Under the pieces are notes generated by a model, which made no database searches, was not told the origin of the DNA, and was given only the letters and a program-made list of their open reading frames with translations. Position numbers and translations under genes: made by a program. Positions 436 through 60,427 of a DNA stretch of 64,000 bases are shown one piece after another; the stretch's first letter is position 1; each line of letters opens with the position of its first letter. This stretch comes from a virus. The stretch lies in UHGV virus genome UHGV-1372779; one strand, written 5' to 3'.

Positions 436-3400
436 TTATGAAGTTTTAAGAGCTTCTAATTGTTCTAATACCCATTCTTGAGTAGCTAATTTTTTTATTG
501 CTGACGCACCTAAACTTGATCCCCAGTAAGCACCATCAGATTTAATAAGAATGCAAGAATTATCACTTGATCTTTGGATAAAAGGTCCTCCACTAGTTTC
601 AGACCATCCAACTAAGAATCTATTGTAACCTTGTACTCTGAAGATTTGGATTATATCAGTTCCATCAGGGTTATGATTATTAATTACAAAAGGAGTTGAA
701 CCATTTCCACTGATAGTTAATGGGCCAATTTGACCTCCTCTTTCTGTAATTATTTCATATTTTGCCCCAGTTGTTATTTGATGATATAATTTTTGATCAG
801 CAGCAGTTCTTAAAGTCACATGTGTTGCCGCACTATTTCCTACTACTACTCCACCATCGTTGGAGAACCAGTACCATATTCCTCCTTTAGTACAGTTTCC
901 AATACCTCCACCAGCTCCTTCACTTCCAGCATAGAAATCTAAACTTTCTCCTGTAGATAATGCTCCTCCTTTTGATGTGAGTACATTATATTCGGTAACT
1001 GTCACGTCTTCGCCTGCTGTATATGCTTTAGTTTCTCCTACACCTAAGGTTAAAGCTCCAGCATGTATTTTTAGATAAGTTGGAGTTCCTGTTGTTGCGT
1101 ATGGGACATTATATCCAGCTTTCCCCATATTAGGATTGATAAATCTATACAGTACTAATGCTCCAGAAGAATATTCTGAACCCATTCCTCCTCCCATAGT
1201 TCCTGCGTAATATAGACCATATCCTAACTGACCATTAGTAATATTATTAGAGTATCCTACTAACATAGCAGTATCTGATTGGATTCTTCCTGATGAAAAT
1301 ATTCCGCCACTAGGTACTAAAGTTGTATTTGAATAATTAGGTGATACTAATAATGAACCAACTTTTAATTTTTTAGCTGTTCCGGTGTTTAATAAGCCTA
1401 TTTCATCAGCATTTCCTTCTAAGTGCATTCCAGTGCCACCAAAGTAATAATTATTAGCATAAATGTTAGCTGTATACACTTTTTGGAATGCCCACTCACT
1501 TGTACCTAATGATGACATACCTCCTGATGATAGATCAACCTTTGAATTAGGAATAAATCCAGCTGTTGGAGATCTTAGCCATGTTAATTCAACACTATTC
1601 TCAATAGACCATAATCCAGGGTAAGCACCTTCACCTATAACATATCCTGCTGGCTTTTCATCTGCAGTTATTACTCTCTTCCAGTTGGATGAATCACCGT
1701 ACCCTAGGTTGTTGGGAGTTCGGAAGTACATGTAACGAGTACTACCAGCGACATTATGATTAACGTCAAAGGCAAGTTGAGGCATTAATGAGAGTGAACT
1801 TCCTGATCCACTACCCCATATTTGGAGAACTGTACCATATTGCATATTAGTCGGACCGTTTATCCAGTAAGAAGGTCCTGTGTAATTATATGCAAGTTTA
1901 CCCTTATCTGGTCCTACTAAATCTATGTTTAAATCATAGGATGTTTTGTCTTCATGAACGAACCCGTAAGTCCACTTAGTGTTAGGTATGACAGATTCCC
2001 AGTTGAATTCATCAAGTATTTTATAATTAGTAGAGTTTTTAGTATGATATAAATCACTGTCTCCACTTCTGATATATGTTACTCCAATAGCTCTACCTAG
2101 ATGTTGTGAATCAGCATTATTATACAAAATAAGAAAAGTATCAGTTCCTGAATCTACCAACTCCCATGATGATGGCACATATAATTTATCTGGATAGAAT
2201 TTATATTGAGCAGAATAATATGCTACATCTCCTAACCCTATGTAAGCATACTTAGCATTAGTATCATTCCCGTATCCTGCGAACCTAATCATAGAATTTT
2301 GATTACTATTAGCCTTTAAACTTAAACCACGATCCCATCCCTCACCTTCTGAAACTGATAAATTAACTGTAACATCATTATCTGAACCTATTATAAACGA
2401 CCCAACGTTAAACTGTCCAGCAGTGAAGGAGTTATTACCTGTAAAGACATTATCTCCAGACTTTGTTACTGGATCTGAGAGGTTGCTAGCATCCCATATC
2501 TTATAATCAGTTAATCCCTTTCTATGAATCAAATCCACGGCTCCACTCCTTATCTTGGTGGTTCCTGATGAACGACCAAAAGTAGCAAGACTTTCACCTT
2601 CCAAATTAATAATAGTGTTATTTAAATCTTTCAAACACCATATTGATGGAACATTCCAACTTATTATATCAAACTTGTATTGTGCAGTACGAGAAGGAAC
2701 TCTACCAAAACGGAGATAAAAGTAATCAACATCACCTTCACTACCCCAACACCCGATCGAAACTGGGATTTTTCCAAGATTATTGTTGGTCCACGTAATA
2801 CCACTTTCAAAATTACTAGTTTCTGGTATGTGTATTACCATTGATCCTTCACTCAATACCTCTAACGGACCCACTGAAAAATTTCCTGCGACGAAACTGT
2901 TAGTCCCGGTGAAAGCGTTATTCCCTGATTTAGTAACAGGATCAATAAGATTATTTCCATCCCAAATCTTATATTCTGAACCAGATGTATAATGTACTAA
3001 ATCAGAATTAGAATATAAAACAGTCTTACCACTTGCTACTCCAACTCCTAATACATTATTACTGTCTAATCCTAGAACAGTTCTGTTATTCCCTTCTGAA
3101 TCTTTAATTATATACCCAGAATTATTAGGAGTTATAAATGCAGATCCTTCTATTTGAGCATCAGATGATAGAATATTCTCTTCTGATCCAGATACCTTAG
3201 TGCCATTAGCAAAATATAAATCACCTGTTAATTTATTCTCTGAACCAGCTGATAAGGGCAGATAATCAGTTAATACTACTTTCTTATAAGTACCATCATC
3301 CGATAGAAATCTATTACCTGTTCCAGATTTAGGCAAGGCAAAAAAATTCTCTTGAACAAAAATAGAACTTCCCGCAGTAATTTGAACACCATAATTTGCA

Positions 3401-6400
3401 ATATTTAAATCTAAAATTGCAGATCTGGAACCAGGAGTAGTACTAGTTATATAACTAGCAAATAATATTACTGAATCTCCAATAGAGGCAACAGCATTTA
3501 CTAATCTAAGTTCTGGCTCACTTCCAAATTTAAGATAAATATCTCTTCCAGATTTATGAGCCTGATAAATTTCTGTTATTTCTTCAGAAGTATATACTTT
3601 TTCTGTATCATTTATATCAATAACTATAGGCGATATAGAAGGAACTTGAATTTCTTTATATGTACCATCATTAGATAAATACTTATTTCCATTCCCAGTA
3701 CCTATAAGATTAGTATACTCACTACTAACTTGAATAGAACTACCTTCAGATAATTCATATTTATAGGAGATTAATATAGTATCTAATCCTGTATCTCCTG
3801 ATTTTTTCTCATGTAATATTTTAGGAACATAAAAACTTAAATAAGCCATTCCTTCTCCCTGACCTCTTTGTCCTACAACTTCTGTTGCTCTTATTATATT
3901 TTCTCCATCCAATATAAAGATAGGAACTCCTTTTGAATAAGCTTCTAATATACTATGTATTTCTTCTCTAGTGTATACTTTATTATCCTCTGAATCTATA
4001 ATTATTGGGGATATAGAAGATTCTATTTCCTTATAAGTTCCATCATTGGATAAAAATTTAGTTCCATTACCTAAAGAATCTAATACAAAATCCCTATCTC
4101 CATTAAACATTAAAGTAGGATCTTTTAATGTTACAGTATTATTAGCTTTGTCTAGTAAATAAGTGCCTACACTAATCATTGCATAATTTATACTGTTTCC
4201 TGCAATTATATTAAGAGAAATTATTGTATCACTTATAGGAATTACTGTACAAGGATAAATAGTTCCATTTACATTTAAATAAATCGCATACTTAGATTCT
4301 GCCTTTTCTTTAATCTCATCAAAATAATTTAATAATTCTGAATTATCATTGAATTGAGGTATAATATAAACTTTATCTAATAAGGACTCTTTAATACTAA
4401 ATTCTCTATAAGGAACCTTATTCTCATCTTCTTTTTTATCTCCTATATCAAATTGTTCTTTATTAGGCAGTGGAATTTCAGTAACATATTCTTTTAACCA
4501 TGCAGGATTATATAATCCTCCATAAGGCATTACACTTGAATTTGAAGGATAGGGATAAATTGTCGGATAGTTTTCTACTATTATTTCATTATTTTCAACT
4601 TTATGAGAACTGAAAGTTAAATAGAAATACTTATCGACTCTATAAGAGGATAAAGAAGGGTTTGCAAAATTTGACAAAGATCCATCAGGGATTCTACAGT
4701 TAAACTCTAAATAATTCCCATTCATTGACATTTGAACATTTAGAGGCAAAATTTGTGAATATCTTATATTTAAATTCTCTTTGTCCGCATCTGGCATATA
4801 GCCTCCTATCGCTGGGTTCTTTAAAAAGCAAGTTCTTATAAATATCGGAGTTCCTTCTTTAACTGCTTGGATAAATTTATTCCAAAAATCTAAGGTATAA
4901 AATTTAGGGTAAAGAACAAAACTCGGATATTTATCATAATCCACACCTGCGAAATCCCCATATCTAGACATATTTGAATACATTTGACTTAAAGCTCCAT
5001 AAATAGTATAGATGCCTCCAGTTCCTGTAACATTGGGATTCTCTTGCTCAGCAAATGTCATGTCCCAAACAAAGCTTCCTCCTTTAACTTCTAAATATTC
5101 ACCATTATCAGATAAATATTTATTACCTTCTCCACTAGTAATAATCTTATCAACTTTAGATTTATCAGAATCAGAATAATCATTACTAGATAATCCCTTA
5201 CCTTCTTCTTTGTCAACCTTCCGATTTAATAACTCCTTAATATCATTAATCTCTTCTCTAGAAATATTATCTCCATACTTAATACCTTGGAACATAATAT
5301 ATCTATTATCAGTAATGAAGTATAAAGTACCTTGATCTATCTCATTTAAAGATGAATATTCTTGAGAAGTTACATATTTTAACTTAATTTCTTGATCTTC
5401 TCCATCCCATTTAAATTGGGCTACTAACCCATCTTCAGTTTTAACTAATCGAACTCCACTATCACTTTTAGCTAAAACTAAATTAGCTTGAAGTCCTATA
5501 CTTGTTTGGATTAATTCAACAGTAGGAAGAGGATTAGAGTTATCTAATGATATACTAGAAGGTCTTTTTATAATAATAACATGAAATGTACTTTCAATAG
5601 TAATCTCAGTTGTAGTAGTTCCGTCTGTAATGACTAAGAAAATATCCCTATTAGTGAAATTTAAATACTCTTGTCTTATAACTGAATATGTAATAACATT
5701 AATAGGCTCAGCAGCTCTAAGACTGAATGGAGAAACATCCGATCTATTTATAGAATTTAAAACAATGTGTCTATTATTTATAATAGCATTAGCTATTTTA
5801 TTATAAATTTCTTCAGTTACATATTCTACTTGTAGATCCTCTATGTTTATAATCTCAATATCAGAGAATATAATTCCTTCTCCAGTTATTTCTACAAATG
5901 TTCCATTATCCATAAGAGCCTTGTTTCCGGCCCCAGTTAGTTCTGGATAACTGTCTAACTTATTCTTTCTTGCTTCAGTTAAATCATATGTAGATAATCC
6001 TTTTCCTTGAACCTTATCAACTTTGTTAATAATAGTTCCTACTAATGTTTTTTCTTCACTTGTGTAATCATTACTGGATAATCCTTTTCCAGGCTCTTTA
6101 TCTACCTTATTATCCACTGACTCTTTAGTTGCAAGTTCAACTTTCTCAGTTTTGATTAAATTATTGAGCTTGGAGATAATTATATTTTTCTCTGTTAAAT
6201 TATTATCCTTAACTGTTAATATAATCTCATTATCAGTGTCTGATATTAATATGACTGATTTAATTAATCCTGTATTATCAGTAGTATAAATATCTGCATT
6301 ATTCTCTATAGCTAGAACTAATCTATTGTAATTCTCATCTGATATTCTTCCTCCGCTTGGTATATCATTTATTTCTGATAAAATTAAAGTTTCTGAGGAT

Positions 6401-13400: not shown

Positions 13401-15667
13401 GTATATCTTCTATACGCCATTCCAGTGCCATCAATATCTCCCACAAGTTGGAAGGCAAAATCACCTTGCCAGAAGTAAGTTAAAGCAACTCCATCATTTA
13501 TTACCTGACTACTTATAGGATCAGTCCCTGGCCTATTTTCAGGATCATTTGCAAATGAGGAAATATGTAACACATCGTTTCCAGTCCTTGCTATAGTAAG
13601 ATTGGAGATTCTAAAATCACTTGTAAATCCTGTGTATGACTTAATAGCTCCTTTAGAATATATTCCATTATTAGGAACTTTTGTCTCATCACTATAATTA
13701 TTAGAAACAAGTAATGATCCTACATTCATTCCAATAGCAGCTCCTGTTGTTTTAGCAGATATTCTAGTTGTAGAAGCATCTAAGAATACATCATTTGTTC
13801 CAAAATAATATTTATTAGAATGATTATTGGCTATATAAGCATTAGCAAATGCCCAACTACTAGTTCCTAAATATCCATTACCTCCAGAAGCTAGATTACC
13901 ACTAACATTAGGTAAAAATCCACTCGTACAGGCTCTTAAATACCCTGGAGAAGTTCCATCCTGATTTATTATTTCTGGATAACCATTAGCATCATATTTA
14001 TATACTGCAATTCTATTATTTTCTATTGCCCAATAACTTCCATAATATCCCATATTAGAAAGTTTATTCCCATCTTGATCTACCGAAGATATAAGATTAT
14101 AATTATCTTCATCAGTAGATTTAAGATAAAGTTTAACATCATTTGGGCCAGCAATAATGATATAATTCTTAAATTCAGTATTCTCTAAATCTGCATGATA
14201 TAATACTTCTGAACCATCAGAAGCTCTGTTAAAAGTGATAGCTGTTACTGGGACAGTAAACTGTGCAACTGTATCTTTTAGAGATAATTTAGTAACATCA
14301 CTTCTTTTAAATAGAAAATCAGATACAGAAGATATTGTACTAGGAAGTAAAATATTTTTGTGGAAATAGAAACCAGTTTTATCTGTATCTAAATTAAGAT
14401 TAGTGTTTCCTGCACTTATAAATATTCCTCCTAATGAGTTAGAATACCTTAGTGTTTGATTTAAAGCATCTCCTGAAAATGAGTGACTTGTTAATTGAAG
14501 ATAAGAATTATTATCTGTAAAAGCTAACTTCCTATCAGAGGGAATTATATTAGTAGTTTTCAATCTTTTAGTAGAAGAATCCCAAGATGTAAACATTCCA
14601 TTTAACATATCAGCATCATCATCTCTAAGAGCTAGACACCATAAATCTCCTTCCTCTCCAGCTTTAAATCTCCTATCTGATTCATCAAATAATATTTGGA
14701 ATTTAGGTAACGTACCTCTATCAATTTCAATTCCTGCAAATCCTTTAGATACCCCTGCTGCAGTTTCTCCTCTATTTAAAAGAATTGTATTATCTCTCAC
14801 CTCAACTGTCTCAGCTTGAGTTATAAAACTCTCTCCTTTTTGAGTTACATTTCCTTCTATAATTATATCCCCTAACGTAACAGGAGCATAGGAGTTATCT
14901 TGATTATTTCTTACTTCTAACTTACCTCCACTGTTTTTGATAATAACTCCCCCATTTGGATCTAATCTAGTATCTATATCACTTTTCTGTAATTGCCAAG
15001 TTTGAGAAGTAGTCCCTGTATTAGATAATCCATCAGCATTGTCCATCCAGTGTTTCTTTTCTGGAGAAACTAATCCATTATTATCATCTGTAACAAGAGG
15101 AATGTTTAAATTAGTAGTAACAGATTCATCAGTATCTGGATTATATTTAGTAACAGTTAAAAATAATGATTCTGTTTCTGCATCAGATATAATCTTAGCA
15201 TCTGTTTGATAACCAGTTACATTATTTAATCTATTAACATAGAACTTAGAAAGTAATCCATTATATAATGTTCCATCACCTAAAACTGTAGCTTCTGGAA
15301 TACTATAATCTCTTAAGGAGGTTATATTAGTATTAGGATCATAACTATGTTCTCTATATAATAAGTTATTATCTTTATCATAGATAATCTCTGTATCTAC
15401 TAGATAATTTTTTATATTCTCTAATTTATCTTTTTCTTCTTTTTCAAATTTGGATAATATTACCCATTTATTTTCATCTTTATGATACACATATTCACTA
15501 TCTGTTTCTTTCACATATACCTTCATTCTATCATAGGCTATGTGTTTAGTTACAAGAGAATCTCTCTCTTCTATTGTTTCAGGATTTAACCTAGGATCTA
15601 ATGGAACCTCCGATTGTATTTTTAAACTATTTATAACCGGAGTCCCATTAGCATAAAAAAGATTCAT
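10445..15667 (-). CDS. Giant tail fibre protein (1740 aa)
   Basis: Six-frame ORF with G/S/T/N-rich beta composition. Shares internal modules with the 2230-aa fibre (LGTSSWAFANAYIANN..YYFG..VGSLLVSNNYS; HYRSTDGSSGTDYVMWDAYNL). Confidence 0.7.
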   Translation of the reverse strand: MNLFYANGTPVINSLKIQSEVPLDPRLNPETIEERDSLVTKHIAYDRMKVYVKETDSEYVYHKDENKWVILSKFEKEEKDKLENIKNYLVDTEIIYDKDNNLLYREHSYDPNTNITSLRDYSIPEATVLGDGTLYNGLLSKFYVNRLNNVTGYQTDAKIISDAETESLFLTVTKYNPDTDESVTTNLNIPLVTDDNNGLVSPEKKHWMDNADGLSNTGTTSQTWQLQKSDIDTRLDPNGGVIIKNSGGKLEVRNNQDNSYAPVTLGDIIIEGNVTQKGESFITQAETVEVRDNTILLNRGETAAGVSKGFAGIEIDRGTLPKFQILFDESDRRFKAGEEGDLWCLALRDDDADMLNGMFTSWDSSTKRLKTTNIIPSDRKLAFTDNNSYLQLTSHSFSGDALNQTLRYSNSLGGIFISAGNTNLNLDTDKTGFYFHKNILLPSTISSVSDFLFKRSDVTKLSLKDTVAQFTVPVTAITFNRASDGSEVLYHADLENTEFKNYIIIAGPNDVKLYLKSTDEDNYNLISSVDQDGNKLSNMGYYGSYWAIENNRIAVYKYDANGYPEIINQDGTSPGYLRACTSGFLPNVSGNLASGGNGYLGTSSWAFANAYIANNHSNKYYFGTNDVFLDASTTRISAKTTGAAIGMNVGSLLVSNNYSDETKVPNNGIYSKGAIKSYTGFTSDFRISNLTIARTGNDVLHISSFANDPENRPGTDPISSQVINDGVALTYFWQGDFAFQLVGDIDGTGMAYRRYTPSTGASGTWKFLADTNWVSNKITSVAGNYLPLAGGTMTGSIIMSNNITIQSKDSSGNSKRLIGKGSDNVTYIGDSDGHTFLYSDAADISHIRNGTSYRIWDAFNLTSPLLYASGTAATPTTVYNRNLGVNGSQWTFLSATNAATTSIYAPTAAGTSGQVLTSTGGVPTWSNISSVGDSRYVLKSGDTMTGSLRLNGGWLAFSNNDWTNEGGVYKEVEGSLKVWRVSTDAENKPSAYGSVLQINSRSGHWNTQLWIDQTNTAENNGKLRYRSTKTYSSVEWNNWTVLATEDYVNSKAAGYLPLTGGTLTGQLIINAASNSLIINNTSSGGNESFIKVKLNGTDKAAIGFLSSIGSYIYNYESNKYLFVGTDGAYFGTPSSNVKLLTTDDNVITAVGGENYVNVSLSKAAQASAGAAKYLEWWDSTPGWYNFRTGYIIANGFIRATTSLQCDGQAILQYSHNGSYHNAINVNKSDGAGYVMIGNYTSKMRTFLLSNASDILHYRSTDGSSGTDYVMWDAYNLPNPATQNWVTSQGYYKSGSSSPLFTSGVYLAANAGTGGWARGYWIGNTNSASTSGVTFGGYGNGDTPSYAYIGVGTNLSYSAVNNLKVYTDKVTFGNKTLATVDQIPTIPSISITTSGSGSVVTGISASGHTLTVTKGSASVSVSWNDITGKPSSFTPSAHTHEYIVGRYTGSGGVIAPGSIGTYKLQCNMMYTNAESSGGGYCDWILMNAYSWSDVPYATAIGVVKAATPSAYIMSGPNSTDKSTWVRKKLATTDEIPTRTSDLTNNSGFLTSSSLSGYATQSWVNNKNYAVQASGNNLIVNSNEFNFANTNTTSIYINYRSGVSGNTTNPITEYKFCNGQGSNSGVKITAETFVGALSGNATTATTASKLGSSTVGGTAKPIYLSAGTATACSATVGSSTVPVYMNAGTITQCSTTLGVSITGNAATSTTATKWNGYDIWVGTESQLPSSRSSTTIYIVTDA

Positions 15668-45917: not shown

Positions 45918-46000
45918 TCCTCCTTCGCATAGTGGTTGATTGCACTGGCTTTGTAACCCAGTCCTGAAAAGGCACGTCAGTTCGAATCTGACAGGAGGAT
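45918..46000 (+). tRNA. Atypical class II tRNA-like gene (long variable arm, 9-nt anticodon loop cuuuguaac or 7-nt loop with a C-C closing mismatch); isotype unresolved
   Basis: Perfect acceptor tcctcct/aggagga. D-arm gca-agtggttgatt-tgc. Stem actgg/ccagt. Variable arm tcctgaaaaggcac. T-arm gtcagttcgaatctgac. Confidence 0.45.
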
Positions 46001-46043
46001 CAATTAAATAACACATTAAATAACACATTAAATAGATAACAAT

Positions 46044-48581: not shown

Positions 48582-48660
48582 TGCGGGTGGGTGAAATGGA
48601 TATACAAATCATTCCAGCCTCATAAGCTGGAGATACTAGGTTCGATTCCTAGACCCGCTA
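48582..48660 (+). tRNA. tRNA with CAU anticodon (Met or Ile2); U1-U72 terminal mismatch
   Basis: Anticodon arm ccagc-cuCAUaa-gctgg. T-arm ctaggttcgattcctag. Confidence 0.6.
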
Positions 48661-48690: not shown

Positions 48691-48762
48691 GAACGAATAG
48701 CTTAGCGGATAAAGCAATTATCTTGGATATAATAGTTCTGGGTTCGATTCCCAGTTTGTTTA
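48691..48762 (+). tRNA. tRNA-Pro (anticodon UGG), AT-rich
   Basis: Acceptor gaacgaa/tttgttt (G-U pairs). Anticodon arm attat-cuUGGau-ataat. T-arm ctgggttcgattcccag. Preceded by the ACTTACAATA motif at 48669. Confidence 0.6.
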
Positions 48763-48771
48763 GTAAAATTA

Positions 48772-48984
48772 GTGACTATTTTTAAATTAAAATCAAAATC
48801 AAAGATTATGGAAACTTATATTAAAATGTATAAACAAAGATATTATGGTTATTACTGTAATATGTGTAAGGATTTAGGAATTAAACCTGTTCCATACTGT
48901 GACTTTGATAAGAATTTATACAAAGAAACAAAACTTTTATTAAAAGATTCAATATTTTGGGCTAGTTCTGGATTTGACAGGTGA
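48772..48984 (+). CDS. Hypothetical protein (70 aa)
   Basis: Small ORF after the tRNA cluster. Confidence 0.3.
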   Translation: MTIFKLKSKSKIMETYIKMYKQRYYGYYCNMCKDLGIKPVPYCDFDKNLYKETKLLLKDSIFWASSGFDR

Positions 48985-49719
48985 TTAGAACAGTATTAAG
49001 ACATGTAGGAAGGCAGTTTCCTTATAAAGGCAAAACTAATAAATGCTAAAGGTAGAGTAATCTCCTTCTCTAGACCTGCAGCTATTGCAGCGTAAGAGTT
49101 GGGTTGTCAACTGACCTAGAAACAGAATAGTTGTAAATATTAAAAAAGGATTGTATTAATATAAGCAAACCAGAATCCTTGAACCTGTGAATCTCTAGGT
49201 TGTAAATATATTTTTTATATTTCCCTTTTAGAAGGTGACAGACCATTGGGTAATTCCATAGGAGCGCTGTTAGGCTTATGAAGTTTCCTTATTCTTTAAA
49301 AATAAGGTGGTGGAGTAGTAATCCATGATTACCCCAAAGTTTGGTAGTTTGTGTATAGCTGAAAAATGGACAGTTGTGTGATATTGTATAAGCACACAAG
49401 TCAGTAAAACTATCTATAATTGATCTATGTGATTTATAGATCATAAACATGTATATCTTAATACTAAGTAAATTGTCTGGACCGGAGTTCGACTCTCCGC
49501 TAGTCCACGGGAACAAGTTAGGTGTGCTCAGGGTAAAGCTCTGAGGGTTAGATATGGATGGAATCAGAAGTACTAGTCTCCTTCTGGATTGAACTAAGAA
49601 AAGAGTATATAAGCATAGTGGACGCACTAAATTTGTGAAATTACTCCACCAAAAGAGATTTTGGTCTAGTAGCATCTAACTTTTTTAAAAATATTAACAT
49701 TTTAAATAACAAAAACAGT
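48985..49719. ncRNA. 735-bp ORF-free structured region: degenerate group I intron-like element or other structured RNA
   Basis: No plausible ORF (only a low-complexity minus-strand ORF). Contains group-I-like blocks: ATTGCAGCG..GGGTTGTCAAC (P-element-like, 49093..49120), GATATGGATGGAATCAGAAGTACTAGTC (J6/7-R-like, 49551..49578) and AAGCATAGTGGAC (S-like, about 49618). Long-range pairing GGTGGAG-TAG-TAAT (49308..) with ATTACTCCACC (49640..). tRNA-T-arm-like hairpin tggac-cggagttcgactctccg-ctag-tcca at 49479..49508. Confidence 0.35.
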
Positions 49720-51836: not shown

Positions 51837-53045
51837 TAAATTCTATTCATAGTCACTCCCAATAGTAATATTGGTGTAAAAATGCTTTAAATTGCGGGAA
51901 ACTCCTTAGAGACTAATTAACTAAGTATAAACAGTGATGTTTATATGGCCTTATTAATGATTAAGGGTATAGTAAAATCAATTAGTATTGGAAAATCCGC
52001 AGCCAAATCTCTTTTATAAAATAATTTAATAAATTCTACAATCATTTTGATTTCTGAATTTAATTGTTTATATTTGTATTATGTTAAACTAATACAAATA
52101 AACATGAGAAAATTAGAACAAAATGAAATTAATAAAATTCTTCAGCTTTACACTGAAGAAAAATATTCAATATCTAAAATAAGAGCACTTTTCAAACTTC
52201 AATTTGATGATGTAAAACATATTCTAGAAGAAAACGGAATAAAGACAAAATCTCAAAGAGAAAGTAGAAAGACTTATGATTATAATGAAAACTATTTTTC
52301 TGAAATAAACACAAAAGATAAAGCCTATTGGTTAGGATTTATTTACGCTGATGGATTTATTACTAAAAAGGCTAAAGGAAGTCCAGTTTTTGGAATGACT
52401 TTAGGAGAAATAGAGCCATTAGAAAAGTTAAATAAATATATGGATTCTAACAAACCTATAGGAATATATAAGAAGAAAAATAGTTATTCTGAAAAATCTA
52501 TTGAATATAAATTAGCTTTCTGTTCTCCTAAATTAGTTTCAGATTTAGAGAAATGGGGAGTTGTAGAAAACAAAACATTCAAATTAAAATTTCCTAACTT
52601 TCTATCTCCAAACCTCATTCCTCATTTTATTAGAGGGTATTTTGATGGAGATGGGAGTGTATATCTTCACATTCAAAAAACTAAGGATAAGGAATATATA
52701 TTCTTGGGTTCCCAGTTTTGCGGAACCAAAAGTTTTCTTTCAGACTTATCTAAATATATAAACTTAGAAACTTGCTTATATAAAGATAGTAGAAAACAAA
52801 CTGATTGTTGGAGGATACAATTAAATTCAAACATAAGAAGCTTAACCTTATATCATTATTTATATAATAATTGTGAAGATTTATTCTTATCAAGAAAAAG
52901 GGAAAAATTTGAAAATTTTATAAAAGAGAGAGGTTCAACGACTACAATAAGCAATCCTATCTATGGTGATCCAGAATATTTAACTCTGTGTTATCTAGAG
53001 GATTAAGGTATAGTCTAATCTTATATGAAAGTATAAGTAGTTATG
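51837..53045 (+). mobile_element. Group I intron with LAGLIDADG homing endonuclease ORF
   Basis: AAATTGCGGGAAA (51893..51905) is identical to the Tetrahymena-type P element. Q-like AATCCGCAGCCAA at about 51993. GACTA/TAGTC P7 candidates at 51915 and 53012. Near-identical GATTAAGG(G)TATAGT blocks at 51962 and 53002 flank the endonuclease ORF. The 5' exon ends in U and the intron ends in G (53045). Confidence 0.6.
52047..53006 (+). CDS. LAGLIDADG homing endonuclease (319 aa)
   Basis: Two LAGLIDADG motifs: YWLGFIYADGFI and IRGYFDGDGSV. Confidence 0.8.
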   Translation: MISEFNCLYLYYVKLIQINMRKLEQNEINKILQLYTEEKYSISKIRALFKLQFDDVKHILEENGIKTKSQRESRKTYDYNENYFSEINTKDKAYWLGFIYADGFITKKAKGSPVFGMTLGEIEPLEKLNKYMDSNKPIGIYKKKNSYSEKSIEYKLAFCSPKLVSDLEKWGVVENKTFKLKFPNFLSPNLIPHFIRGYFDGDGSVYLHIQKTKDKEYIFLGSQFCGTKSFLSDLSKYINLETCLYKDSRKQTDCWRIQLNSNIRSLTLYHYLYNNCEDLFLSRKREKFENFIKERGSTTTISNPIYGDPEYLTLCYLED

Positions 53046-53952: not shown

Positions 53953-53980
53953 CAAAAGCTACTTACAATAAGATTTAAAT

Positions 53981-54053
53981 ATAACAATAGCTCAGTTGGT
54001 TGAGCAAATTTTTGGTAAAAATTAGGTCGTAGGTTCAAGTCCTACTTGTTAAA
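53981..54053 (+). tRNA. tRNA-Thr (anticodon GGU)
   Basis: Acceptor ataacaa/ttgttaa. D-arm gctc-agttggtt-gagc. Anticodon arm aattt-uuGGUaa-aaatt. T-arm gtaggttcaagtcctac. Confidence 0.65.
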
Positions 54054-54082
54054 TAAATTTAAAAGTAGCTATTTTATAACTT

Positions 54083-54241: not shown

Positions 54242-54314
54242 TAAATTGTAGCTCATTGGGTAGAGCATTTGATTTTTAATCAAAGGGTAGTGGGTTCAAG
54301 TCCCATCTTAGTGT
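54242..54314 (+). pseudogene. tRNA-Lys(UUU)-like body with non-complementary acceptor strands (pseudo-tRNA or non-canonical)
   Basis: D-arm tagctcattgggtagagca. Anticodon arm tttga-uuUUUaa-tcaaa. T-arm gtgggttcaagtcccat is identical to that of tRNA-Lys at 59069. 5' taaattg and 3' cttagtg do not pair. Outer stem cagacact/agtgtctg flanks the unit. Confidence 0.35.
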
Positions 54315-57500: not shown

Positions 57501-57511
57501 ACAATTATTTA

Positions 57512-57597
57512 AGTACCTTTGGCCGAGTGGACGATGGCACATGACTGTTAATCATGCAGGAGAAATCCTCACCGTAAGTTCGAATCTTACAGGGTAC
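57512..57597 (+). tRNA. Atypical tRNA: class II architecture (GCCGAGUGG D-arm, 17-nt variable arm, G73) with a GUU (Asn) anticodon
   Basis: Acceptor gtacctt/agggtac. D-arm gcc-gagtggacgat-ggc. Anticodon arm catga-cuGUUaa-tcatg. Variable arm caggagaaatcctcacc. T-arm gtaagttcgaatcttac. Confidence 0.5.
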
Positions 57598-57729
57598 GCT
57601 CATTCTTAACCTACATCTTAGGATGCTAATATAGTTGTACAAGAATGTCTTTGTAGTGTTAGGTGAATACAAAGACGCTGGCTGCAGCGTGATACTCAAT
57701 GGTGGAATTAAGAGCAGCACCACCAATTT

Positions 57730-60067: not shown

Positions 60068-60141
60068 GCACCTGTAGCCCAATTGGCAGAGGCAATAGAT
60101 TTAGGCTCTATCCAGTGTGAGTTCGAATCTCACTAGGTGTA
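60068..60141 (+). tRNA. Atypical tRNA: class I body (5-nt variable loop) with UAG anticodon (a Leu-type anticodon normally found on class II tRNAs)
   Basis: Acceptor gcacctg/taggtgt (two G-U). D-arm tagcccaattggcagaggc. Anticodon arm ataga-uuUAGgc-tctat. Variable ccagt. T-arm gtgagttcgaatctcac. Confidence 0.5.
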
Positions 60142-60427
60142 CGAAAATCAAGAAAGAACAGGTTTTCGATTTTTTGGTGCAGTTTGGGGTATTTGAAGAT
60201 TGATTTCATCTTTAAATACCCCATTTTTATTTTTATACTTAACTTCAAAATATGAGCCTATTTTATACCCAAAATGATGTAATTTTTAGAATCTCATTCT
60301 GGAACTGTATATTGAAAATAATAAAAATTTCATAAGGTGTATATATAATGAAATTATGAGTAATTTAGTTAAATATTTTTAAATTTATTTGATGTTGAAT
60401 TTTATAAATAATAGATAGAATATAGTT

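Follow-up and report, generated by a model that had tools for sequence, protein, structure and literature searches.

A long-armed phage tRNA with an asparagine anticodon and its predicted charging with asparagine

In textbook bacterial tRNAs, a long variable arm is found only on those for leucine, serine, tyrosine and selenocysteine. What, then, should be made of a tRNA gene that combines such an arm with GUU, the anticodon of asparagine? The question is raised by positions 57513..57598 (+) of UHGV virus genome UHGV-1372779, a 64,000-nucleotide stretch of viral DNA that is referred to here, in its whole length, as the window. An earlier note on this DNA described the gene as a class II (Ser/Leu/Tyr-type) body bearing an Asn anticodon and raised the prospect of a tRNA that, once charged by seryl-tRNA synthetase (SerRS), mis-decodes AAC and AAU, serving recoding or host sabotage. 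The answer proposed here, to which we assign a probability of about 0.75, is that the gene encodes a genuine phage tRNA-Asn isoacceptor with a conserved extra arm, predicted to be charged with asparagine. Its fold, the conservation and covariation of that fold, the pattern of its identity elements, the standard meaning of AAY codons (Y, pyrimidine) in the phage and its place as the sole Asn tRNA of a large cluster are established by the analysis, and they are taken up in turn below.

Read from the sequence, the gene is a full-length tRNA of 86 nt including the discriminator; the feature pointed out in the earlier note is thus real but lies one position downstream of where it had been placed (57512-57597). 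ARAGORN calls a tRNA-Asn(gtt) of 87 nt at 57513..57599, and Rfam RF00005 matches 57513..57598 over its full length (model 1-71 of 71) with 54.0 bits, against a gathering score of 29 (E = 8e-9, whole window searched), the variable region carrying a 13-nt insertion relative to the model. The parts are as follows.

57513..57598, + strand: whole tRNA-Asn(GUU) with extra arm, from ARAGORN, Rfam RF00005, the minimum free energy (MFE) fold and covariation
57513..57519, + strand: acceptor 5' strand GUACCUU, pairing with 57591..57597 (G1-C72, U2-A71, A3-U70; 7 bp including one U.G)
57522..57538, + strand: class II-type D-arm GCC-GAGUGGACGAU-GGC, with a 3-bp stem and an 11-nt loop containing G18G19
57540..57556, + strand: anticodon arm CAUGA-CUGUUAA-UCAUG, with the anticodon GUU at 57547..57549
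57557..57573, + strand: variable region of 17 nt, made up of C44, the stem AGGA/UCCU, a GAAA tetraloop and the unpaired tail CACC
57574..57590, + strand: T-arm GUAAG-UUCGAAU-CUUAC, from the sequence and Rfam, with 4 of 5 pairs covarying
57591..57597, + strand: acceptor 3' strand AGGGUAC, from the sequence and covariation
57598..57598, + strand: discriminator G73, read from the sequence and G in 47 of 48 distinct family members

The acceptor stem thus spans 57513..57597, with the discriminator G next to it at 57598; U8 and G9 follow the acceptor 5' strand, A26 separates the D-arm from the anticodon arm, and the last C of the CACC tail probably pairs with G15 (G15-C48). CCA is not encoded, the next bases being CTCA. 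A 3-bp D-stem, a long D-loop, a long variable arm and G73 are all present on a body with a GUU anticodon, as the earlier note had seen. The single-sequence MFE fold is the cloverleaf plus extra arm that is read by eye. Its energy is unremarkable against shuffled sequences (z = -0.79), and it is therefore the covariance model and the comparisons among homologues, rather than thermodynamics, that support the fold. The RF00005 score and the covariation among homologues rule out a by-eye mis-fold, which the earlier note had allowed for, or a chance cloverleaf. An intron in place of an arm is likewise ruled out, as the insertion sits in the variable region and forms a covarying hairpin. Assignment of a standard isotype by such tools had been named as telling against the mis-decoding reading, and it is what ARAGORN returns: the isotype is Asn, on the very fold that had been drawn.

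The gene is not confined to one genome. A 109.5-kb IMG/VR contig, L001, is near-identical to the window and carries the same long tRNA-Asn gene, and the D-arm 19-mer of the window tRNA recurs unchanged in the long tRNA-Asn of other viral contigs as well as in some viral tRNA-Tyr and tRNA-Ser. When IMG/VR was searched with the D-arm string and then with a degenerate pattern (Ser/Tyr-type D-arm and YYGTTAA loop at the right spacing), 58 viral contigs were matched, many of them 100-500 kb long; 65 parsed copies reduce to 47-48 distinct long tRNAs of 82-91 nt, all called tRNA-Asn(gtt). The pattern undercounts the family because the D-stem of phiKZ, CCC/GGG, falls outside it. An exact string of anticodon plus arm gave no match in IMG/VR, since the closest relative differs in exactly that stretch, and a megablast search for a close GenBank phage relative of the window found none. 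Cultured carriers, all annotated as plain tRNA-Asn, include phiKZ (PHIKZ_t02, 89 nt) and its relatives, Escherichia phage 4MG (X824_gt009, 86 nt) with related Cronobacter, Klebsiella and Enterobacter phages, and Mesorhizobium phage Cp1R7A-A1 (Cp1R7A-A1_101, 88 nt). Ordinary short Asn genes coexist with the long form in about 18 loci. The same pattern, run on one genome per species across 185,579 species, returned 32 loci, most of which are chance matches or broken 5' halves of tRNA-Ser. Only six are real cases called as long Asn by ARAGORN, all of them on contigs of metagenome-assembled genomes within tRNA clusters, and a tRNA type belonging to cellular hosts was rejected on this ground.

The anticodon loop varies somewhat within the family: several members have C33 for the near-universal U33 (loop CCGUUAA; L001 14678..14764, L029, L056, L039), and one clade (L031, L033, L038, L046) has UUGUUAA. 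A search of full-text literature, thin on subscription journals, found no description or explanation of long-arm Asn, Lys or Thr tRNAs in phages, so that the family is widespread yet apparently undescribed. Its members are already in GenBank as plain tRNA-Asn; what is undescribed is the extra-arm variant, not a new system.

For covariation, 12 distinct family members with the layout of the window gene were aligned. Standard pairs are formed in 99.3% of cells, compared with 34-43% when the partners are slid, and both partners have changed in 19 of 24 pairs, among them 7/7 in the acceptor stem, 4/5 in the anticodon stem, 4/5 in the T-stem and 4/4 in the extra arm. The 17-nt stem-loop reported in the earlier note is therefore real; the D-stem is invariant among these homologues only because the search pattern fixed it. 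The loop of the extra arm is GNAA in 11 of the 12, and its 3' tail reads C-A/G-Y-C across the family. On this comparative evidence, the structure of the long tRNA-Asn is under selection.

In what genome, then, does such a tRNA work? At 30% GC, the window carries genes for a P22-like portal and for the large subunit of a terminase. This terminase shares 26-30% identity with its counterparts in crAss-like phages and 45% with the one from an uncultured 117-kb human-gut phage, and this likeness marks the phage as a crAss-like gut phage, whose host is probably a gut Bacteroidota. ARAGORN finds 27 tRNA genes, all on the + strand between 44.9 and 60.2 kb, which cover all 20 amino acids and include a single Asn tRNA. 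The long form is also the only Asn tRNA in L001, whose set likewise numbers 27 and serves 20 amino acids, and in viral contig L062, which has 33 tRNAs. AAT codons are frequent in this 30% GC phage.

The central question is which amino acid the tRNA accepts. Bacterial Asn identity resides in the anticodon together with G73, a pair that can be moved to a different tRNA (PMC9976931). G73 and GUU of the window tRNA make up exactly this set, and both G73 and the CUGUUAA loop recur in the ordinary short Asn tRNAs of sister phages, in line with the observation in the earlier note that the loop stands in tRNA-Asn context. G73, which had been taken there as a hallmark of Ser-type class II tRNAs, is the Asn discriminator as well. 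The class I shape with a 4-5-nt variable loop, which is typical of Asn tRNAs but does not define their identity, is absent from the window tRNA.

The reading that the earlier note raised is that SerRS recognizes the long arm and G73, ignores the anticodon, and thereby places serine at AAU and AAC, as a means of recoding or sabotage. It is not without foundation. SerRS is indeed anticodon-independent and relies mainly on the variable arm (PMC9976931), the class II body, long arm, G73 and C11-G24 are all present in the window tRNA, and the D-arm 19-mer is shared with some viral tRNA-Ser. The acceptor stem points the other way: G1-C72 and G2-C71 are absolutely conserved in most bacterial tRNA-Ser, and C2-G71 is listed as a SerRS antideterminant (PMC9976931). 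The window tRNA has G1-C72 as in Ser but U2-A71, unlike Ser, and G2-C71 occurs in only 7 of 48 long Asn tRNAs as opposed to 42 of 43 phage tRNA-Ser of these loci; the family has UA in 25 cases, CG, the antideterminant, in 13 and GC in 7. The arms differ too, with a 4-bp stem and four unpaired 3' bases in the window tRNA compared with 5-6 bp and one unpaired base in the 43 phage tRNA-Ser, and the window's own tRNA-Ser have other D-arms and U73.

Whether G73 goes with a common Ser-type body or with Asn can be asked of long-arm tRNAs with other anticodons from the same loci. The discriminator is A in Lys(UUU) (7/7), Lys(CUU) (1/1), Met(CAU) (4/5), Ile(GAU) (2/2), Pro(UGG) (1/1) and Arg(ACG) (1/1), C in His(GUG) (2/2), U in Cys(GCA) (1/1) and Gly(GCC) (1/1), and G in Asp(GUC) (1/1); the nine Thr(UGU) tRNAs have U in seven and A in two (9/9). 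The discriminators of the other long-arm phage tRNAs thus follow their own isotype and not a common G73.

The meaning of the codons themselves provides a separate test, for which the window terminase was aligned with 30 homologues of no more than 50% identity. At its 26 AAY sites the homologues have N in 31%, D in 11%, T in 10% and S in 5%; in the 10 conserved columns among these sites, N prevails in six and S in none. AAY therefore means Asn in this phage, and the small sample excludes a reassignment, not low-level ambiguity. Taken together, the 2-71 pair, the arm geometry, the correlation between discriminator and anticodon, and the codon test led to the rejection of a Ser identity. A Ser-accepting mis-decoder is accordingly very improbable, the more so as the tRNA fills the only Asn slot of a full 20-amino-acid set in an AAT-rich phage whose AAY sites align with Asn, not Ser. 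With it, both SerRS charging with mis-decoding of AAC/AAU and the role in recoding or host sabotage lose their support, and the mistranslation device is very probably a false alarm.

Other identities that go with a long arm were weighed in the same way. Tyr is ruled out by G73 and U36, A73 being present in 19 of 19 phage tRNA-Tyr, and Leu by G73, A73 being present in 31 of 34 long phage tRNA-Leu; G73 is listed as an antideterminant for both leucyl-tRNA synthetase (LeuRS) and TyrRS (PMC9976931). The Rfam search found no match of the gene to tRNA-Sec models. The folds of tRNA-Sec and allo-tRNAs have 8/5, 9/4, 8/4 or 9/3 acceptor/T-stem pairs, and both types are ruled out by the covarying 7-bp acceptor stem and 5-bp T-stem of the window tRNA and by that negative search.

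Several observations nevertheless weigh against a long tRNA-Asn charged with asparagine. The discriminator rule is imperfect, as the long tRNA-Lys (87-88 nt) of two alphaproteobacterial phages have U73 and not A73 (Mesorhizobium phage Cp1R7A-A1 2999..3086 and 3320..3407; Caulobacter phage CcrBL9 2497..2583). With the anticodon masked, 14 of 53 long Asn bodies are closest to tRNA-Ser and 6 of 53 to tRNA-Tyr, and a subfamily (18 of 51 long Asn) has a Ser-like single unpaired 3' base. Moreover, asparaginyl-tRNA synthetase (AsnRS) is a class II enzyme that approaches its tRNA from the variable-loop side, and tolerance of a long arm is not guaranteed.

Asparagine can also reach its tRNA indirectly, and this bears on one further possibility. 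Transamidation of Asp-tRNA-Asn by GatCAB needs U1-A72, and G1-C72 is the antideterminant found in tRNA-Asp (PMC9976931). U1-A72 is present in the long Asn tRNAs of phiKZ and the Mesorhizobium phage, G1-C72 in those of E. coli phage 4MG and the window. Pseudomonas and rhizobia use the indirect Asn pathway. The 1-72 pattern fits long Asn tRNAs that are tuned to the Asn-charging routes of their hosts. In a host with the indirect pathway, a non-discriminating AspRS could charge a tRNA having G1-C72 in place of U1-A72, which would then escape amidation and deliver Asp to Asn codons; G1-C72 in the window copy and its role as an antideterminant speak for this. It is scarcely credible here, however, as the likely host is a gut Bacteroidota, a group that has AsnRS, as the proportions of N (31%) and D (11%) at AAY sites are at the level of ordinary N/D exchange, and as the members from phages of indirect-pathway hosts do have U1-A72.

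The favored reading thus remains a tRNA-Asn onto which the host AsnRS, guided by the GUU anticodon and G73 and presumably tolerating the arm, most likely loads asparagine. It would decode AAU and AAC as Asn for a low-GC crAss-like gut phage that brings its own tRNA for every amino acid. As to expression, the tRNAs of phiKZ, considered collectively, are transcribed and sediment together with 30S-containing and ribosomal fractions, which host tRNAs do not (PMC8545117), and transcription start sites map to the phiKZ tRNAs as a group (PMC8244752). A noncoding RNA of about 100 nt near the tRNA-Asn locus of phiKZ was considered and set aside as a different transcript.

Where the scaffold comes from is less clear-cut. 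It is a class II-like one with a 3-bp D-stem, a long D-loop, a 4-bp GNRA-capped arm and four unpaired bases, conserved in many large phages and common to long-arm phage tRNA-Lys. In the masked comparison the nearest non-Asn tRNA of a long Asn is most often a long-arm Lys (32 of 53, followed by the 14 Ser and 6 Tyr); long Asn and long Lys, which both read the AAN codon box, have a D-arm type, a GNRA-capped arm and a 4-nt tail in common. The scaffold may have originated from Tyr, from Ser or within the Lys/Asn pair, the nearest-neighbour comparison not singling out one of them. A census of arms by anticodon, made in a sample chosen for containing long Asn, finds the extra arm also in Thr(UGU) (9/31), Lys(UUU) (7/39), Met (5/38) and Lys(CUU) (3/26); in these loci it is absent from Ala, Gln, Glu, Gly(UCC), Phe, Trp, Val, Arg(UCU) and Thr(GGU/CGU). 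The window phage has two extra-arm tRNAs, Asn(GUU) and the following one, which is homologous to long Thr(UGU) in 9 distinct sequences from other viral loci, at least 8 in number.

45918..46001, + strand: sister tRNA-Thr(UGU), 84 nt, with the extra arm U-CCU-GAAA-AGG-CAC, a class II-like D-arm and U73

Is the arm, then, of any use to the tRNA? It could be a neutral relic on a genuine tRNA-Asn, inherited from a class II or long-arm Lys ancestor and kept because its loss would break the class II-type core. The closeness to long-arm Lys bodies and then to Ser and Tyr agrees with this, as does an apparent anticodon switch on one body, the homologous tRNA-Thr(GGU) of the window (53980..54054) and tRNA-Pro(GGG) of L001 (9169..9241), which differ at 9 positions including 36-37. 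Covariation of the arm stem speaks of structural constraint, not of a specific function, and phage tRNAs seem flexible in their arms, given that E. coli LeuRS has no need of one and that the Leu(UAG) of the window is armless. Such a relic is nonetheless rather unlikely: phages of great diversity have retained the arm together with its unpaired C-R-Y-C tail, a few anticodons account for most of the arms, which are not randomly spread, and the joint presence of long and short Asn genes in about 18 loci suggests that the two forms are not redundant.

A function may be sought in defense against tRNA-cleaving nucleases. AriB of the PARIS system cuts Lys(UUU), Thr(UGU) and Asn(GUU) between positions 40 and 41, T5 escapes it through tRNA variants mutated near the cut site, and in an AlphaFold 3 model a second AriB monomer contacts the D-loop at 16-17 (PMC12409363). 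The recurrence of the arm in Asn(GUU), Lys(UUU) and Thr(UGU), which are AriB targets, suggests evasion of tRNA-cleaving defenses. The comparison of the window with L001 is relevant in this respect. The two genomes share blocks that are 94-99% identical, and 16 of 27 tRNAs are identical, but tRNA-Asn shows 8 differences, 7 of them in the anticodon arm, where L001 has three compensatory pair swaps and a change from U33 to C33. tRNA-Thr(UGU) shows 4 differences, 3 of them in the anticodon stem, and position 41 differs in both tRNAs. This fits an arms race at the anticodon arm, in which the extra arm might act as a steric shield or a self-mark, although it is a correlation only. It is thus possible, if doubtful, that the arm has been kept because host tRNA-cleaving defense nucleases act poorly on a copy that bears it, or because it identifies that copy as the phage's own, synthetase determinants being left untouched. 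By a wider and equally tentative proposal, large phages may have evolved a distinct class of extra-arm tRNAs, for the most part Asn(GUU), Lys(UUU/CUU), Thr(UGU) and Met(CAU), which have a class II-like scaffold in common and whose arm, sparing the synthetase determinants, would sterically block AriB/PrrC-type nucleases or allow phage factors to distinguish phage from host tRNAs.

Here, too, there is evidence to the contrary. The U36-A-A-U/C-C motif recognized by AriB is kept in most family members, the link to nuclease evasion is a correlation in a sample chosen for long Asn, and the hosts here are not E. coli. No data on 4MG-like phages were found in the PARIS and retron papers. In addition, L001 has an insertion of about 700 bp (13976..14678) between tRNA-Ala and the long tRNA-Asn, with an open reading frame (ORF; 14063..14632, +) for a 189-aa HNH-like protein (Pfam HNH_3, 22.2 bits, under the cut-off of 24.8). 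The window lacks it, the spacer between tRNA-Ala and tRNA-Asn (57502..57513) being 10 nt, and 19 positions set the flanking tRNA-Ala of the one apart from that of the other; in phiKZ an HNH endonuclease gene adjoins tRNA-Asn. The patch of changes in the anticodon arm could therefore have come from homing with co-conversion, or from target-site immunity, linked to the HNH-like ORF.

One may also ask whether the molecule is primarily a decoder at all. As a tRNA-shaped decoy or sponge, it would titrate a host tRNA-targeting nuclease or another tRNA-binding factor. Overexpressed viral tRNAs have been raised by the authors of the AriB study as competitive inhibitors (PMC12409363), many phages carry long and short Asn genes together, and several members have C33 in place of U33. 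It is, however, an improbable role for a tRNA that alone represents Asn in a set for all 20 amino acids and that has preserved the acceptor stem, discriminator, T-loop and anticodon loop of functional tRNAs. A decoding tRNA-Asn remains the preferred reading.

The surrounding region has further peculiarities. At 60068..60142 (+), the window encodes a tRNA-Leu(UAG) of 75 nt that has A73 and G37 yet lacks a long variable arm, an anomaly in the opposite direction; short tRNA-Leu (72-81 nt) are found also in viral loci L002-L014 and in Mesorhizobium phage Cp1R7A-A1. The tRNA-Pro(UGG) at 48691..48762 has a counterpart at L001 5301..5371 in which the anticodon loop is deleted or mutated and which ARAGORN reports as '???' with a two-base anticodon. 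The tRNA-Met(CAU) at 48583..48659 (+), with its anticodon at position 39 and an enlarged D region, starts 2 nt downstream of a 90-nt tRNA-Tyr with an unusual D-arm. A partial tRNA at 54248..54307 (+) is detected by Rfam (model 7-64, 50 bits) and missed by ARAGORN; its anticodon loop looks Lys(UUU)-like by eye, and the match stops short of the acceptor stem. At 48959..49510 (+) lies a gene resembling transfer-messenger RNA (tmRNA; Rfam RF00023, 49 bits vs a gathering score of 47), which differs from its L001 counterpart (5395..5905) by a 42-nt insertion at about 49186..49227 and a divergent stretch; ARAGORN calls a tmRNA only in L001, with the tag peptide VNIKKGLY*. A LAGLIDADG endonuclease ORF (52047..53006, +) lies within the tRNA region. 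Close homologues of the terminase, including P0001, P0004, P0005 and P0100, are in some cases 280-350 aa longer than that of the window, and some of the longer ones carry intein and LAGLIDADG domains, which the window terminase lacks.

A covarying long arm on tRNA-Asn and, in related phages, on Lys, Thr, Met, Ile and His tRNAs departs from the class I/II split. The family spans dozens of large phage genomes, including those of the model phages phiKZ and 4MG, whose annotations make no remark on it. Anticodon and discriminator can apparently confer identity when the scaffold is class II, a point of use to tRNA engineering. If the arm does protect from anticodon-arm nucleases or mark a tRNA as the phage's own, it would offer a new answer to why phages carry tRNAs; the steric arm would then be a structural counter-defense unlike the point-mutation escape of T5. 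Since cultured E. coli and Pseudomonas phages carry the arm, its role is directly testable.

How the window tRNA relates to known systems can be summarized from its several sides. With canonical class I tRNA-Asn, such as that of SPO1 and the short Asn tRNAs of sister phages, it shares GUU, CUGUUAA, G73, the 7-bp acceptor stem, the 5-bp T-stem and the UUCGAAU T-loop, and the anticodon arm of the SPO1 tRNA, CAUGA-CUGUUAA-UCAUG, is identical to its own; the canonical form has a 4-bp D-stem and a 5-nt variable loop, whereas the window tRNA has a 3-bp D-stem, an 11-nt D-loop and a 17-nt region with a hairpin. The long Asn tRNAs of phiKZ, 4MG and Cp1R7A-A1, which lie likewise in phage tRNA clusters, have the same class II-type D-arm, CUGUUAA loop, GNRA-type arm loop and G73, and the unpaired CACC/CAAC tail is common to the window, phiKZ and 4MG; they differ in sequence (about 75-85% identity to the window tRNA) and, in phiKZ, by the D-stem CCC/GGG and U1-A72. 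The bacterial class II tRNAs for Ser, Tyr and Leu share the long variable arm and the D-arm type, and the arm geometry is closest to that of Tyr (3-4-bp stem, three unpaired 3' bases). The window tRNA departs from them in its Asn anticodon, in G73 where Tyr and Leu have A73, and in lacking the G2-C71, long stem and single 3' base of Ser.

Nematode nev-tRNAs and allo-tRNAs also combine a long arm with the anticodon of a class I amino acid, and they mistranslate, either keeping Leu/Ser identity elements whatever their anticodon or having an 8/4 or 9/3 fold. Unlike them, the window tRNA has a 7/5 fold and a discriminator that matches the isotype of its own anticodon. Among phage anti-defense tRNAs, which include mycobacteriophage anticodon-loop variants and the tRNA-Tyr of SP15 and T5 directed against retron Eco7, a parallel is provided by the tRNA-Lys, tRNA-Thr and tRNA-Asn of T5, used against PARIS AriB. 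These are phage copies of the targeted Lys UUU, Thr UGU and Asn GUU isoacceptors, and in both settings the variation between close relatives concentrates in the anticodon arm. The known escape variants, however, have point substitutions near the cut site (positions 16, 39 and 41) and no added arm.

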